A stretch of 64,000 bases of DNA from an uncultured delta proteobacterium (lineage in GTDB: Bacteria; Desulfobacterota; Syntrophia; Syntrophales; UBA2185), in NCBI GenBank assembly GCA_963729715.1, contig CAVSPA010000005.1, positions 544,001 through 608,000 of the forward strand, read 5' to 3'. Below the pieces are notes generated by a model. It did not search any database. It was not told where the DNA came from and saw only the letters and a program-made list of their open reading frames with translations. Position numbers and translations under genes: made by a program. Positions 54,888-60,403 of this stretch are shown piece after piece; the first letter of the stretch is position 1, and the number at the start of each line of letters is the position of its first letter.

Positions 54888-56569
54888 ATGAAACAGAAGA
54901 CTGATGACCAGAAGGCTGCTGCAAGGCTCAAGAAAGATTTCAAGACGTGGCACACTGATATCTACGGCTCTCAGAAAGAGCGCAAGCCCCATTTTAAGAC
55001 CCTCTCCTGAATTCCCATACAACCGCTTTACACACCTCTCGATACGGCAAATATTGACTATCTCAAAGATCTGGGATTCCCCAGCTGCGAACCGTATATC
55101 CGCGGCGTTCACCCAACCATGTATAGGGGAAGAGTGTGGACGCATCGACAACTCGCGGGTTTTGGTCCGCCTGAAGAGACGAATAACCGCTATAAGTTTC
55201 TTCTTCAACAGGGGGCAACGGGGATCAACGGCGTCTTTGATTACCCGACCCTGCGGGGCTACGACAGCGATGATCGGGAGGTATACGCCGACGTAGGCCG
55301 CGGCGGCGTTGCCATCGACACAATCGAGGACATGCGAATCTTATTTGACGGAATTGCGATCGACAAGGTCAGCGTATCACTGGTCACATGTCAACCTATC
55401 TGTAATATCTCGATTCAGTCGATGTATTTTGCCAATGCAGAGCGGAAAGGATTGTCCCTGAACGTATTATCGGGAACGAGCCAGAACGACTTCCTGATGG
55501 AGACAGCCATTACAACCGCCCCGAGCGTCCTGCCGCCAAAGGTTTCCTTCAAGTTGAGCTGTGATGCCATCGAATTTTGCACACAACATGTACCGCGATG
55601 GAATCCCATCAGCTTTGCCGGATACAATTACCGGGAAGCCGGATGCACGGCGCCCCAGGAAGTTGCTTTTGTCATTTCCTGTGCCATTGCCTGCTGCGAG
55701 GAACTGATCCGGCGCGGCCTCGACATTGATAGCTTCGCTCCTAGGCTCAGCTATTTTCTTTCCGCGCACAATGATCTCTTTGAGGAAATCGCAAAGTACC
55801 GGGCTGCGCGAAGAGTCTATCACAGAATCATGAAGGCGCGGTTCGGCGCAACTGATCCTCGTTCCCTGATGTTCCGGCTCCACGTGCAAACAGCCGGTGT
55901 AGCTCTCACCGCCCAGCAACCTTTGAACAACATTGCCAGGGCTGCCTACCACGCCCTTTCTGCCGTACTGGGTGGAGCCCAGTCTGTACATGTTGATGCT
56001 TACGATGAGGCGCTGTGCACACCCACGGAGCTTTCGTCATTGACGGCGCTGCGCACGCAGCAAATCCTGCAGATGGAAACAGGCGTCACAAATACGGTGG
56101 ATCCATTAGGCGGATCATTCTTTGTGGAATCTCTGACCAATAAAATGGAGGCCGAGGTCGAAAGAATTATCTCGGAGATTGACGGCATGGGCGGTATTGT
56201 CAAGGCGGTCGAAAAGGGATGGATGCATACTGAGATAGCATCGGCTGCTTATCAGTATCAGGTTGACATTGAATCCGGCGAGATGCCCATCGTCGGGGTA
56301 AATTGCTTTAAGATCGAAGATGAAGTTCTTCCCATAGAGCTTTTCAAGGGCCCGGAAACGCTGCTTATCCAGAAAGAGAAACTCAAGAGGAACAGAAAAG
56401 ACCGAAATCCCAGGGAAGCTGCGAAGGCCCTCGATGCTATTACGAGCTGTTGCGAGCGGGACGGAAACCTTATGGAGGTCATTGTAGACGCCGTCAAGAC
56501 GCACGTTACGGAGGGAGAAATATCAAAGACTCTGAAGACATTTTTATGGGATATGGCACCCACCCCTCT
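54888..56569 (+). pseudogene. B12-dependent acyl-CoA mutase large subunit, disrupted
   Basis: RGVHPTMYRGR, FDYPT..GYDSD, QND, EEIAKYRAARR, DPLGGS. In-frame TGA at 55008-55010, probable +1 T at 56541-56545, IS110 in the last codon (native stop 58286-58288). Confidence 0.85.
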
Positions 56570-56600
56570 CCTGAGAAACTTCACGTCCAATAAGGGTTTC

Positions 56601-58001
56601 CTAAGAACGTACATTGCTAGCGAGAGGTTCCAAAGTAATGGCATAACCTAATTGTTTGGCTTTAGTTTTAATATTTTTAATTACTCGTTCTTTGTATTTT
56701 TGTTCATAATAGTCTACTCCGGGGTCCAGATAGGCTTCTCCGTTTTTCCAAAGACGATAGAATATGCGGGCAAGCTTATGGGCTGTCGCGGTAATCGCTT
56801 TGGGTGCCCCAAGCCTCGCACGCATACGGCGGTAATATGCGCCTAAGGCACTTGCGCTGCTGTGCAAAGATTCAGCGGCCATACGAAAGGCTTCAGCGGC
56901 TCGATTTACCACTTTACGGGTTTTACTGGATTTTACTTTTCCGCCGGTAATGCGATTATCCGGGCATAATCCCAGCCAGGATGCAAAATGCTTCTCCGTA
57001 GGGAAAGATCCAGGATTAAGGCCAACCTCGCTAATGACCGTCTGGACAGTCATTACATCCAACCCGTCAATCCGGGTTAAATCGGCGCCGGTTATCCGGT
57101 ATAAGTGAGTATGCAAATCGATTTTAGGCTCGTTGCGTCTTCGCTTTCTGTTTGCCTTTTTTGAAGGAGGCACCGGGTTAGTGTTTATGTCTAATTTGGA
57201 GTCGAATTGGGCCAAACAATTCTCTATCTGCCGGTCGCAGGCTTCAATCTTCTGGTGATAAAAATCATAAAGTTCAACGGCCTGCTTTAAAGCAAACATA
57301 TGTTCTTCACGATAGTCCCCTTCCAGAGATTTGACGATGTCCTGGACACTGCACATAATACGGCGATCTCTCATGTCGGCCAAAACAAGGGGGTCACGTT
57401 CACCGGCAATGATGGCACGAACAATACGCATGCCGGTAACACCGGTAATGTCCGAGATGACTTTGTGCAACTGGATATTCATCTCCGTAAGCGCCTTCTG
57501 CATATGCAGGATATGAGAGGATGCATAACGAAGAAGATTGTCACGATGGCGCCAATAACTCCTCATAACACAAATCTGGTCTTCCGGTCGAAACGAACCG
57601 CTTAAAAGACCGTAGGCATGGAGATTTTGCAGCCATTGGCAATCCTGAACATCCGATTTACGGCCGGGAACATTCTTCACATGCCGGGCATTAACCAGTT
57701 TGACCTCAAACCCGTAAGTCTCAAGAATTTGAAACACCGGGATCCAATAAACACCCGTTGACTCCATGGCAACACTATCGATTCGGCACTCTTTCAGCCA
57801 CTGGGCCATCGCATGAAGATCGGATGTAAAACAACGGAAGGGACGCACGGGACGCTTATCACGATCTTCGGGGACGGCGACATAATGCTCCTCTGCACCG
57901 ATATCTATGCCGGCGGCATTTAAATTAAGCTTGGATAGCATACCGGAATCCTTAGATTGGACGGATAACTTCTTTTGTTGCCTTTTAAGACTGTTCCCCA
58001 T
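56601..58001 (-). CDS. IS110-family DEDD recombinase/transposase
   Basis: GIDIG, AMESTGVYW, KSDVQD (DEDD), C-terminal SWLGLCP..RITGGK, ATAHKLAR; ATG 58001 after a GGGGG RBS. Confidence 0.95.
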   Translation of the reverse strand: MGNSLKRQQKKLSVQSKDSGMLSKLNLNAAGIDIGAEEHYVAVPEDRDKRPVRPFRCFTSDLHAMAQWLKECRIDSVAMESTGVYWIPVFQILETYGFEVKLVNARHVKNVPGRKSDVQDCQWLQNLHAYGLLSGSFRPEDQICVMRSYWRHRDNLLRYASSHILHMQKALTEMNIQLHKVISDITGVTGMRIVRAIIAGERDPLVLADMRDRRIMCSVQDIVKSLEGDYREEHMFALKQAVELYDFYHQKIEACDRQIENCLAQFDSKLDINTNPVPPSKKANRKRRRNEPKIDLHTHLYRITGADLTRIDGLDVMTVQTVISEVGLNPGSFPTEKHFASWLGLCPDNRITGGKVKSSKTRKVVNRAAEAFRMAAESLHSSASALGAYYRRMRARLGAPKAITATAHKLARIFYRLWKNGEAYLDPGVDYYEQKYKERVIKNIKTKAKQLGYAITLEPLASNVRS

Positions 58002-58026
58002 AAACTTGCCCCCTGATTGGTTTTTG

Positions 58027-58200
58027 GGGCATGCCCCGGCCCGAGTCGGTAAAAAACGGTTAATCTCCTGAACGGGATCTGACATGCCGAAAAGACATGA
58101 TTTGTCACCAATGTAATAACCAAAGAAAACTCGGTACCATGCTTCTAGACGGGTATGAAAACACCAGTGAGGAGTCGATATTGACTGCCGGGGCGCACCC
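58027..58200 (-). ncRNA. Putative IS110 bridge RNA (about 174 nt)
   Basis: Closing stem 58187-58200/58027-58040; two internal loops carry segments matching the target (ACTCCTC, TAGAAG) and the donor (ATTG, TCAGGAG). Confidence 0.75.
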
Positions 58201-58319
58201 GCTGCCTACTTTATAAAATTGTATTTAATAAAGCCAGTTTCTTCCATGAATAACACCGTTGCGTAGCACCGGGGTCAATTGCTTCTAAGTAGTCAGGAAA
58301 CTTTCCAGGAGAACAGACA

Positions 58320-58706
58320 ATGAGCAAAAGAAAAAGGATTCTTGTAGCCCGCCTAGGCATGGATGCCCACTGGAGAGGTAGCGTCGTGGTGGCAAGGGCT
58401 TTGAGGGATGCGGGGATGGAGGTGATTTATATAGGCAATCAGATGCCTGAGGGAATCGTAAAAGCCGCCATTCAGGAGAGCGTGGATATTATCGGATTAA
58501 GTTCTCTCTCAGGCAACCACATGATTCTGGCCCCGGAGGTCGTCCAAATTCTCAAAAGGGCGGGCGCAGACGATATAAAAGTAATCTTCGGAGGAACTGT
58601 ACCGCCCGAAGATATTCCCCTGCTGAAGGAAGCTGGGATCTAGGAAGTGTTCGGCCCAGGGACCTCCGTTAAAAAAATCATCGATTTCGTTAACTCCCTA
58701 GATTGA
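58320..58706 (+). pseudogene. Cobalamin-binding small subunit of the mutase, with in-frame TAG
   Basis: DAHWRG (DxHxxG), ALRDAGMEVIY, GLSSLSG, GGTVP; TAG at 58641-58643 is followed in frame by EVFGPGTSVKKIIDFV. Confidence 0.85.
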
Positions 58707-58885
58707 TTGATTTGGACAGCTTTTCTTAAAAAATTTATCCTAGCAGATTTCACCAAATTTTAGTTAGCATTCTGCCATCGATTGTCCCCCGGTACAGACC
58801 TGTACTTTTTATCGCGAGTAAATAGGCGGCACCCTGGTATAAGGTTTTTATGAGTTTCAGAGAATTAAGGTGCTCCATACTCTCT

Positions 58886-60403
58886 TCAGTGTATGGCACC
58901 GGTTTCGCTATTGAGATTCGGGATGTGTTTCTTGCCATGGTCCGAGGCAATCTTATTATCCGCCTCCATGACCCAGCCGCCGCCCAAGGCTTTGTAGAGA
59001 GCTATGAGATCTGTGGCGATACTACGCTCGCTCTGTACCAACGCGTCTTCGGAGGCGTAAAGAGAACGCTGGGCATTGAGCACGTTGAGAAAATCGATCT
59101 GGCCCTCAGTGTAAAGCTGCAATGACAAATCCACAGCCTTGCGGTTGGCGACAACGGCATCATTAAGTGCCTTGCGGTGCTCTTGTTCCTTGGCAAAAGC
59201 AATCAACGCATTCTCGACATCCTGAAACGCTGCCAGGACCGTTTTCTGGTACGTGATGAACGCCTGGTCACGTAGCGCCTCCTGCAAATGTACGTTCGAC
59301 ACAATCGCACCGCCCTGGAAAATCGGCCATGTCACCGCCGGGCCGAAGGAGTATGAACGACTGGCGTCGGTCCACCACGTGCGCAACAAATTGCTGTTCC
59401 AGTTCATCGTACCGGTTAATGAAAACGACGGAAAGAAGTCGGCAATAGCGACACCGATTTGTGCGGTGGAGGCGTGCAACTGAGCCTCAGATGCGCGTAT
59501 GTCTGGCCGGCGGCGCAGCATGTCTGAGGGCAAACCGGCGGGCACTTGCGCCGGCACTCCGGGCAGGTTACACATTGGCGACAACTGCTTCAACAATTCC
59601 GCCGGCAGCCGGGCCAACAGCACACTCAACGCATAGATGGATTGCTGTGCAGCGGTTTCAAAGACCGGGATTTGAGACTCGGTTGTGGCAACGTTAGAGT
59701 CGGCGTTGGCGACGTCAAGCGCACTGGCGAAGCCGACATTCAATAGCCTATGAGTAATCTCGGCGGTGTGCTTCTGGGCTTTCAGATTGTTTTGCGCGAT
59801 CACAATCTCCCGCTGGTAACCGCGGAGCTGGATGTAATTGAGCGCCACTTCAGCGATGACGCTGACCTGCACGTCGCGGATACTTTCAATTGCGGCTTGG
59901 ATATTGGCATCGGCCGATTCCACGTTGCGGCGCTGCCCACCGAAGAGGTCGAGTTCCCACACGGCGTCTAAACCGGCCTGATAAAGATCCTGTTGGTTTA
60001 CGTTATCCGGCGTGATGCCCGCCAAGTGTACTCTCTGGTAACCGCCGGAGGCTGTAACCCCAGGCCATAATCCAGCGACGGCCACGCCCCGTGCGGCGCG
60101 GGCCTGGCGCAAGCGGGCCTCGGCTATTTGGAGATCGAGGTTCATCCTTATCGCTTCCTCGACGAGCGAGCTCAATATCGAATCGTTGAACTGCCGCCAC
60201 CACTGCGTAAGGTCAGCCGCCTGCGCAGTAGCTACTGACTGTTGCGCACTCGGCGTCATCGCCACGCCAACCCACTCGCCGGGAACTGCCAACTGCGGCG
60301 TACGATAATCCGGACCGACCATGCACCCGCTTACCATCAACATGGTTAAACTGACCGCTACAGCCAAGACCGAAACGCAGTGCCATTGATCGTCCATATG
60401 CAT
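58886..60403 (-). CDS. NodT/TolC-type outer-membrane efflux lipoprotein
   Basis: Lipobox VSGC-MVGPDY, WELDLFG, RRPDI, LYKALGGGW. Confidence 0.92.
   Translation of the reverse strand: MHMDDQWHCVSVLAVAVSLTMLMVSGCMVGPDYRTPQLAVPGEWVGVAMTPSAQQSVATAQAADLTQWWRQFNDSILSSLVEEAIRMNLDLQIAEARLRQARAARGVAVAGLWPGVTASGGYQRVHLAGITPDNVNQQDLYQAGLDAVWELDLFGGQRRNVESADANIQAAIESIRDVQVSVIAEVALNYIQLRGYQREIVIAQNNLKAQKHTAEITHRLLNVGFASALDVANADSNVATTESQIPVFETAAQQSIYALSVLLARLPAELLKQLSPMCNLPGVPAQVPAGLPSDMLRRRPDIRASEAQLHASTAQIGVAIADFFPSFSLTGTMNWNSNLLRTWWTDASRSYSFGPAVTWPIFQGGAIVSNVHLQEALRDQAFITYQKTVLAAFQDVENALIAFAKEQEHRKALNDAVVANRKAVDLSLQLYTEGQIDFLNVLNAQRSLYASEDALVQSERSIATDLIALYKALGGGWVMEADNKIASDHGKKHIPNLNSETGAIH

Follow-up and report, generated by a model that had tools for sequence, protein, structure and literature searches.

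Results

An IS110-family element with a preserved insertion site

The window, a 64,000-nucleotide stretch of DNA from an uncultured delta proteobacterium, carries an insertion sequence made up of a non-coding left end of about 280-340 nt, a recombinase gene and a right end of about 31 nt (Table 1). Seven copies of the element, 100% identical, are present in the genome. Nine loci of the same genus were fetched, and eight of them (L090-L097) hold an uninterrupted site without the element, reading ...CACCC(A/G)CC(C/A)CT-CT-TCTAA(G/T)...; the ninth (L098) had no match to the anchor pattern and is left out of the empty-site count. Since these related genomes carry the site with a single CT, the ends of the element are placed as in Table 1, with one CT on each side. 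The empty target ACCCCT-CT-TCTAAG, which an earlier note on this DNA had reconstructed, is borne out by the eight genomes; the element ends map to the CT pair, as that note required, and with these boundaries the predicted circle junction CAATTG-CT-CCTGA is as it had claimed. The element thus shows the site-specific insertion expected of the IS110 family, with a 2-nt core on both sides and no long terminal inverted repeats.

The insertion point is the 3' end of a methylmalonyl-CoA-mutase-like gene, and the insertion truncated this gene and uncoupled it from its B12-binding partner. An exact CTAGAAG left flank is found at six of the seven genomic copies, the window copy having TTAGAAG, and AGGRRG stands on the right in four of the six full-length copies with a readable right flank. 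A search of the same genome for an unoccupied CTCTAGAAG-AGGAAG site found none. Tandem IS-spacer-IS forms occur among RNA-library contigs (as contigs only, from four runs); the exact circle junction was not seen in these contigs, which leave parts without cover and gave neither the ends nor the strand of the RNA. The element is an intact, recently expanded or active insertion sequence, ordinary for its host genome.

Table 1. Features of the element in the window (positions are those of the window; helices and RNA segments are given on the recombinase strand).
Feature	Position	Strand	Basis
Insertion sequence of the IS110 family (1712 bp, duplicated core excluded)	56570..58281	-	Seven identical copies and empty sites
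Right-end junction copy of the core CT, which reads AG on the recombinase strand	56568..56569	+	Single in empty sites, flanks the element on both sides
Left-end junction copy of the core CT, which reads AG on the recombinase strand	58282..58283	+	Empty-site comparison
Right-end copy AGTTTCT of inverted repeat, separated from the element end by 4 nt	56574..56580	-	Homolog comparison
Recombinase gene (466 aa with ATG 58001 as start)	56601..58001	-	Pfam, NCBIfam, homolog lengths
Bridge RNA body: outer stem (58200-58187 with 58040-58027) enclosing the target- and donor-binding stem-loops	58027..58200	-	Covariance model
Donor-loop 3' guide UCAGG-AG-AU	58063..58071	-	Own 7-mer at the right end
Donor-loop apical helix, 3' strand GAUCCCG, pairing with UGGUGAC	58073..58079	-	Covariation
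Donor-loop 5' side, UUAUUACAU and UGGUGAC	58104..58119	-	Largely conserved
Target-loop basal stem, UAUCG with UGGUA	58180-58176 with 58139-58135	-	98-100% of cells paired; compensatory changes
Target-loop 3' guide CUAGA-AG-CA	58140..58148	-	Own 7-mer at the left junction; genomic copies
Target-loop apical hairpin UGGUGU...AUACCCG	58150..58166	-	98-100% of cells paired; compensatory changes
Target-loop 5' guide ACUCCUCAC	58167..58175	-	Position-matched against the right flank
Left-end copy AGAAACU of covarying inverted repeat	58236..58242	-	Homolog comparison
Putative sigma-70-like promoter TTGACC-17-TGTTAT	58250..58278	-	By eye; RNA start would be about 58243

The recombinase

The recombinase, which would have 446 aa if translation began at the alternative ATG at 57941, contains an N-terminal DEDD RuvC-like domain (Pfam PF01548, 5e-18, 65.8 bits) and a C-terminal Tnp domain (PF02371, 2e-10, 41.3 bits), both above cut-off, and matches NCBIfam NF033542 with 280.8 bits against a cut-off of 140. 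By its domains it belongs to the IS110 family in the broad sense, that of the DEDD transposases. The nucleophile position is occupied by a threonine within GLCPDNRITGG, which aligns with the serine of the IS621 ESG motif (S241 in IS621), so that the catalytic serine itself is absent. A motif search found this threonine in 104 of 120 close homologs among the matches listed; the lengths of the 120 listed lie mostly between 459 and 469 aa. At least 8000 database proteins match the recombinase at E <= 1e-20, and relatives about 50% identical are found on Citrobacter and Enterobacter plasmids.

A conserved two-loop RNA upstream of the recombinase

The covariance model matches the window at 58052-58193 with 100.5 bits; among 78 homologous loci it finds the structure upstream of the recombinase in 73, and its matches are confined to the recombinase-sense strand. 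The earlier note had proposed such a check, and the structure is kept in homologs. In the alignment 99.3% of paired cells are filled by pairs, compensatory changes occur at 7 of 16 pairs, and none of 500 shuffles reached the observed value. Because the G-U pairs are invariant in the RNA alignment, the strand of the RNA is fixed. Both loops are built on a common skeleton, in which a basal stem is followed by a 9-nt 5' guide, a UGGUGR...YCCCG hairpin, a U, and then 5 nt, AG and 2 nt. The apical and basal helices of the target loop together show four pairs with compensatory changes; the apical helix of the donor loop shows an A-U/G-C switch in 17 of 53 rows and a change from C-G to A-U, G-C or G-U in nine of 53 (A-U in six).

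The outer stem pairs in the window at 13 of its 14 positions, two of them G-U, exactly as claimed before. Its conservation in homologs is only suggestive, the two comparisons made being weak tests (a longest helix of 9.0, where shuffles gave 7.5; presence in 30 of 46 MFE folds, and in 20 of 46 when the tail was shuffled), and for this stem and the donor basal stem conservation in the homologs is not demonstrable statistically. Two details of the earlier fold fared less well. The first loop is there, but it is closed by its own 5-bp stem and not by the outer stem or CCGAGU; its hairpin is there too, but covariation places it in the register UGG-U-GU/AUACCCG, with a bulged U, rather than GGUGU/AUACC. 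Since each loop has its own stem-loop, the earlier fold needs correcting.

Single-sequence MFE z-scores were unremarkable (-1.39 and -2.01) and the MFE folds miss the conserved stem-loops; a first MAFFT/RNAalifold pass recovered the core helices only, with the 3' part misaligned. BLASTN of the ends against the homolog loci returned four short matches for the left end and none for the right, so few that the ends cannot be aligned by sequence alone. An Rfam scan of 56000-59000 gave three chance-level matches, all outside the RNA body (E 0.44-6.2), and a promoter and terminator scan of the left end listed no site. On the other IS110-family elements of the genome, own copies excepted, the covariance model scored at most 17 bits, and with such weak matches the comparison has no internal control in canonical guide order. 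One RNA-library contig is 94% identical to the window over 57997-58255, with changes inside both target guides.

Guides that co-vary with the flanks

The short motifs named in the earlier note lie where it had put them on the minus strand: ACUCCUC at 58175-58169, UAGAAG at 58147-58142, AUUG at 58112-58109 and UCAGGAG at 58071-58065. Inside the window these matches are weak evidence when taken alone: a blind scan of the left end gave eight matches of 6-7 nt to target or donor, several of them outside the guides. The window copy has one left-flank mismatch to its own guide (TTAGAAG against CUAGAAG), and its right side needs a G-U pair. The case rests on the homologs, for which a set of about 46 distinct elements was used.

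The 3' guide of the target loop consists of the left flank, the core and the first 2 nt of the element, a handshake-like arrangement. Of 43 elements, 25 carry their own 7-mer from this guide at the left junction, and the 7-mers of other elements, used as controls, occur there at 1.1% (21 of 1894); the own 7-mer was not found upstream in the remaining 18, mostly of planctomycete families, in which the left ends were not mapped. In 22 of 27 elements (controls, 16%) the final dinucleotide of this guide is the one with which the left end begins; for the donor loop the corresponding dinucleotide matches poorly, as judged by eye. On the 5' side of the target loop, ACUCCU pairs with the right flank on the recombinase strand (AGGGGT/AGGAAG) and CA faces the core. 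The 5' guide matches the right flank at 2.84 of 6 positions, against 1.52 in controls (62 pairs), and none of 5000 permutations was as high; the mean nevertheless stays below 3 of 6, and the register shifts in some families.

In the donor loop the 3' guide equals the right-end terminus TCAGG plus the core: 39 of 41 elements have their own 7-mer at the right end, where the 7-mers of other elements occur at 2.6% (42 of 1645), and the four variable nucleotides of the guide co-vary with the right end (CAGG, GGAG, TAGA and others). On the 5' side of this loop no more than about 3-4 nt (AUUG) are able to pair with the start of the left end, CAAT. Position 9 pairs with the third left-end base in 16 of 27 elements (controls, 35%), and further positions are near chance. 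The proposal that AUUG is the donor-left guide thus holds for a short, weak guide, while most of AUUG belongs to a conserved CAUUGGUG motif. The donor-loop 5' nonamer was also considered as a 6-nt left-end guide in the register of the target loop; by eye this was unsupported, with a signal of 1-2 nt only.

AG occupies the core position in the 3' guides of nearly all 53 distinct homolog rows, and guide polarity is the same in all families examined. The 7-mer counts and permutations show that the guides co-vary with the flanks across homologs, and the segments that match are loop sequences set between covarying stems; the earlier note had named failure on either point as grounds for giving up its claim. 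Its central statement, that an IS110-family recombinase is accompanied by a bispecific guide RNA with matches to the element's own target and donor and that the insertion site is preserved, is supported by the boundaries, the loops and the covariation.

A covarying inverted repeat

A further pair of segments varies together in the homologs. About 20 of 27 elements carry a repeat of 6-9 bp at both of the places listed in Table 1, with matching changes on the two sides; the left copy lies 30-40 nt inside the element. The subterminal repeats typical of IS1111 elements have 7-17 bp and lie near both ends. This repeat ties the right-end terminus to the interior of the left end, and subterminal inverted repeats are described in IS1111-type relatives (PMC11187229), which could suggest that the repeated segments are DNA-level sites for the recombinase, or a regulatory structure of the 5' UTR, with target choice encoded by the protein; the RNA-side evidence, moreover, consists of contigs in RNA libraries only. 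We regard this explanation as highly improbable, given that the variable segments belong to the loops of a structure whose helices are maintained by compensatory changes and by G-U pairs invariant on one strand, and that they track host flanks differing between elements whose recombinases are 41-71% identical to that of the window. Of the two guides, furthermore, one reads like its flank and the other like the complement of its flank, as expected of an RNA that pairs with both DNA strands in the manner published for IS621 and the seekRNAs.

Discussion

We interpret the locus as an intact IS110-family element with a two-loop bridge RNA whose guide order is reversed relative to IS621 and ISEc21, a reading to which we assign a probability of about 0.88. 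Homology with the IS621 and seekRNA systems is the ground for assuming that the RNA is transcribed and bound by the recombinase, that the element passes through a circle and that the chemistry is the one known there. On this view a two-stem-loop bridge RNA would be made from the left end on the recombinase strand. Its target loop would use the 5' guide to contact the recombinase strand on the right of the insertion point. Since the 3' guide of this loop repeats the left flank and the AG core, it would pair with the opposite strand, and its last 2 nt reach into the element as the handshake guides of IS621 do. The right-end terminus and core are spelled by the 3' guide of the donor loop, whose 5' side would make only a short contact with the start of the left end. 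The circularised element and a YCTAGA-AG-AGGRRG target would then exchange strands at the 2-nt core, through the action of the DEDD/Tnp recombinase, which carries threonine as its putative nucleophile.

Much of this layout is shared with IS621 and ISCro4. According to the published descriptions (PMC11208160, PMC11208158), these too have a DEDD and Tnp recombinase and, upstream of its gene, a left end that encodes the RNA. Target and donor are bound by separate stem-loops, with two guides per loop that address opposite DNA strands and overlap a 2-nt core, a 2-nt handshake after the 3' guide and one donor arm with a short guide. The window element likewise has a structured RNA in its left end with guides that co-vary with target and donor. 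Against IS621 itself, however, local identity is only about 25% (E 1e-5), the recombinase has 446-466 aa and not 326 aa, threonine replaces serine at the nucleophile position, and the two stem-loops are enclosed by an outer stem. The core on the recombinase strand is AG and not the CT of IS621, and, as IS621 is described, the guide order within each loop is reversed; a 5' guide equal to the left half plus core, with a 3' guide complementary to the core plus right half, was found in none of the families examined. Of the earlier comparison with IS621-type recombinases and their CT core, the bispecific two-loop RNA stands. The earlier note, however, had taken the target from the + strand, and the RNA is encoded on the - strand; because, seen from recombinase and RNA, the core is AG and the guides come in the order opposite to that of IS621 and ISEc21, the element is not IS621-type in layout.

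The strand convention for IS621 and ISEc21 is taken here from the published descriptions (PMC11208160, PMC11208158, PMC11187229), and it could be objected that the reversal is a mere choice of the top strand, so that the RNA is an ordinary IS621-type bridge RNA and nothing in the layout is new. Read on the CT strand, all the rules published for IS621 do hold: the 5' guide equals the left half plus C, and the 3' guide is the reverse complement of the core plus right half, with two handshake nucleotides after it. By the published definition, nevertheless, the left target is whichever flank adjoins the left end, on the side upstream of the recombinase where the RNA is made, and in IS621 the guide pairing with its bottom strand is on the 5' side of the loop (PMC11208160, PMC11208158), whereas in the window element the guide that spells this flank lies 3' in the loop. 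The order of guides is moreover counted as genuinely distinguishing IS110-type elements from those of the IS1111 type (PMC11187229). We therefore consider a mere change of convention unlikely.

ISEc21, an IS110-type seekRNA element, shares the upstream non-coding region that makes the guide RNA, but its top-strand match is described as lying 3' of the bottom-strand match, whereas in the window element it lies 5' (PMC11187229). In the IS1111 seekRNA elements ISEc11, ISPa11, ISKpn4 and ISPst6, as in the window element, the top-strand-complementary segment precedes the bottom-strand match, and the GL-P----S/TG motif and a habit of inserting into the termini of other mobile elements are common to both; the covarying repeat of the window element may correspond to their subterminal inverted repeats (PMC11187229). 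Their long non-coding region is downstream of the transposase and that of the window element upstream, their transposases have 330-350 aa and their repeats lie near both ends (PMC11187229). The layout of the window element is the guide order of IS1111 seekRNA elements together with the IS110-type position of the RNA upstream of the recombinase.

These likenesses raise the question of whether the element is an IS1111-family element in which the non-coding region has moved upstream, so that it belongs with the seekRNA elements and not with the IS110 group. The top-strand complement coming first in guide order, the GL-P----TG motif with threonine, the covarying subterminal repeat and the upstream non-coding region described for rare IS1111 relatives such as ISMtsp17 (PMC11187229) all speak for such an origin. 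A recombinase of 446-466 aa, set against the 330-350 aa given for IS1111-type transposases and the 395-455 aa of the IS110-proper subgroup (PMC11187229), and a left repeat copy 30-40 nt inside the element speak against it, and on balance we find it rather unlikely.

The mechanism is already known, and what is new in this IS110-family element is the layout, a variant among bridge-RNA elements. Mining for bridge RNAs on a large scale exists: a 2026 preprint reports 86 bridge-RNA models over 32,190 loci and may include the clade of the window element, which may thus have been catalogued without description. Tentatively, and with the odds rather against us, we propose a large uncharacterised clade of bridge recombinases that combines the IS110-type RNA position, IS1111-type polarity, a threonine nucleophile and a third recognition element. 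If this is true, the third element would be the 5'-proximal AGAAAC of the RNA or left end paired with GTTTCT at the right-end terminus, and it would extend donor recognition 6-9 nt beyond the two loops.

Bridge recombinases are under development as programmable DNA insertion tools. Natural variation of guides and flanks suggests that the window element would be programmable as well, and natural orthologs with another geometry would widen the design space. The clade is abundant, its natural guide-flank matching is clean, and a preserved empty site is at hand. Guide order and RNA position can evidently be combined otherwise than in the two published types, and the layout bears on the relationship between IS110 and IS1111 elements and on which strand is exchanged first.

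Boundaries, copies and relatives of the element

To define the element, we used a query spanning it and looked for genomes of the same genus in which its flanks match contiguously. The empty site, read in eight of the nine fetched loci (the ninth was not read), is ...ATGGCACCC(A/G)CC(C/A)CTCTTCTAA(G/T)..., and these eight loci set the limits of the element (see table). The empty target and circle junction proposed in an earlier note, made from the sequence alone, were thereby reproduced. The recombinase is an NCBIfam "IS110 family RNA-guided transposase" (281 bits).

Features of the insertion sequence and its surroundings
Feature	Window position	Strand	Basis
IS110-family element, 1712 bp	56570-58281	minus	empty sites; CT once in the empty site, on both sides here
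Recombinase gene, 466 aa, two IS110 domains	56601-58001	minus	PF01548 5e-18, PF02371 2e-10
Bridge RNA	58052-58193	minus	extent of the covariance-model match, the only one in the window; 100.5 bits
Inverted repeat copy, left end	58236-58242
Inverted repeat copy, right end	56574-56580
Methylmalonyl-CoA-mutase-like large-subunit gene	55119-56651		PF01642, 1e-165
B12-binding subunit gene	58320-58643

The same genome carries seven full copies at 100% identity, which suggests an active element, and one 590-bp fragment; two weak (72%) matches belong to another element. At least 8000 related proteins were found at E <= 1e-20, tblastn located relatives in 468 plasmid records, some of them from Citrobacter and Enterobacter plasmids with copies of about 50% identity, and the element itself occurs at 100% identity in DNA contigs of two coded sequencing runs. 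The IS110 DEDD domain is matched 23 times over the 3.76 Mb of the genome, by at least seven different lineages.

The insertion lies in the mutase large-subunit gene, where it replaced approximately the last 11 codons; the original tail was reconstructed visually from both flanks together with the empty sites. In the native arrangement, the mutase stop codon and the start codon of the B12-binding subunit gene overlap (ATGA, likewise by eye); the insertion has set the two genes 1.7 kb apart.

A conserved RNA upstream of the recombinase gene

The left ends (upstream of the gene) of 78 fetched homolog loci, from relatives 41-71% identical, gave no alignment by sequence; they share a skeleton that is present twice, G(G/A)CCG-N9-UGGYG...CCCGU-N5-AG-N2. 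Fifteen of these loci served to build a covariance model, which matches 73 of the 78, every time on the recombinase strand and upstream of the gene. Among 53 distinct rows, 99.3% of paired cells are maintained, compared with 29-49% in slid controls, with compensatory changes in 7 of 16 pairs. None of 500 shuffles reached the observed values on four of five measures; on the fifth, further standard pair types, 16 of 500 did. The RNA strand is fixed by invariant U-G pairs. Target and donor loops each form a separate stem-loop, which replaces the loop arrangement drawn earlier. The outer stem of that fold does pair in the window (13 of 14 positions); in the homologs, no statistical support was found for its conservation. 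In one other IS110 lineage of the genome (C5:103559 and C7:315076, contig and position), the left-end RNA scores 17 bits with the model, a weak relationship.

A 6-9 bp inverted repeat has one arm, GTTTCT, at the right-end terminus, 2-5 nt before the element stops, and the other, AGAAAC, in the interior of the left end, at a depth of 30-40 nt. The two arms covary across families (GTTCCT/AGGAAC, GTTACT/AGTAAC, GTTAGT/ACTAAC, GTTCAT/ATGAAC, GTTATT/AATAAC) and may act as a subterminal repeat of the DNA or as an additional RNA-DNA contact.

Guides covary with flanks and element ends

Guides were taken by alignment column, giving 46 distinct sets. The donor-loop 3' 7-mer recurs at the right-end terminus, at most 300 nt after the gene, in 39 of 41 elements, against 42/1645 when the 7-mers of other elements are used. 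Its target-loop counterpart recurs at the left junction, 66-104 nt upstream of the RNA, in 25 of 43 (control 21/1894), and the dinucleotide that follows this guide is identical to the one that opens the element in 22/27 (control 16%). In this the extension resembles the handshake guides of IS621. In the 5' nonamer of the target loop, the first 6 nt show 2.84 complementary matches of 6 to the right flank (control 1.52), a score equalled or exceeded in 0 of 5000 family-level permutations; the match is partial and in some families needs a shifted register. On the donor-loop 5' side, position 9 pairs with the third left-end base in 16/27 (control 35%); this side is mostly conserved among homologs, and therefore the AUUG put forward as a donor-left-arm guide is at best a very short one. 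These results show guide/flank covariation, and this natural variation suggests that the system may be programmable.

An RNA-library contig (run X16; 257 nt, 94% identical) covers 57997-58255 and is uninformative on strand, ends and transcription. Relative to the window guides (58142-58175), its target 5' guide differs at three bases (ACGCACC) and its 3' guide at one (UUAGAAG), changes that would represent natural reprogramming.

Insertion sites

On the recombinase strand, TAGAAG lies left of the left end in all seven copies of the genome (CTAGAAG in six), and the right flank is AGGRRG in four of the six full-length copies where it is readable. For five of the seven, a second DEDD element has its right terminus 9 bp away, at ...CTCTTCTCTAGAAG|AGGAAGGTA. 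That element (C3:320503-322125, with a C4 copy adjoining 692021) is about 1.63 kb long and has the IS1111 layout, a 427-aa gene with a downstream non-coding region of about 240 nt. In nature, the element appears to prefer the end of another insertion sequence as its target. The mutase-gene site of the window is an off-consensus look-alike.

At C3:322120-328094, copies stand in tandem with a 126-bp (or about 92-bp) spacer. Their right junctions are irregular: CAGGAG|GTAAGT occurs, as does CAGGAG|GAAGAGG, and a further one runs into another copy at its position 1194. Contigs of runs X1 and X2 have the same form (58287 joined to 56568, 87 letters between). The array suggests that recombination at the right end was unequal or half-matched, or else that the form stems from the assembly.

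Comparison with known IS110-family layouts

In IS621, according to the parts of two reports considered here (Durrant 2024, PMC11208160; Hiraizumi 2024, PMC11208158), the left target denotes the flank that adjoins the RNA-producing left end. The guide pairing with its bottom strand lies on the loop's 5' side, and that strand is the one on which the core is given as CT. In the window element, the guides bearing left-flank and right-end-terminus sequence are on the 3' sides, and the RNA strand carries AG as the core. The guide sides are thus swapped and the earlier label "IS621-type" does not hold as given. All IS621 rules in those parts apply when the opposite strand is read.

As far as the consulted text of Siddiquee 2024 (PMC11187229) goes, IS1111-type seekRNAs place the top-strand complement first, an order also tabulated in a 2026 review, with the non-coding region downstream, whereas ISEc21 (IS110-type) has the complement second and the region upstream. 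Measured against that text, the clade of the window element joins the upstream RNA of ISEc21 to the guide order of IS1111. This combination was not found described in the passages and sections of literature text that were covered; a 2026 preprint on large-scale mining has 86 bridge-RNA models, which may include this clade. A Thr, found in 104 of 120 close homologs, aligns with the catalytic Ser of IS621 and is compatible with the GL-P----S/TG motif that the same text gives for IS1111 transposases; in recombinase length, as described there, the element resembles the IS110-proper subgroup and not IS1111.

Once the fold and the label are corrected, the original observation is confirmed and its reading supported: the element is a genuine insertion sequence with a bridge RNA, its target is preserved, and its layout is a variation on a mechanism already known.
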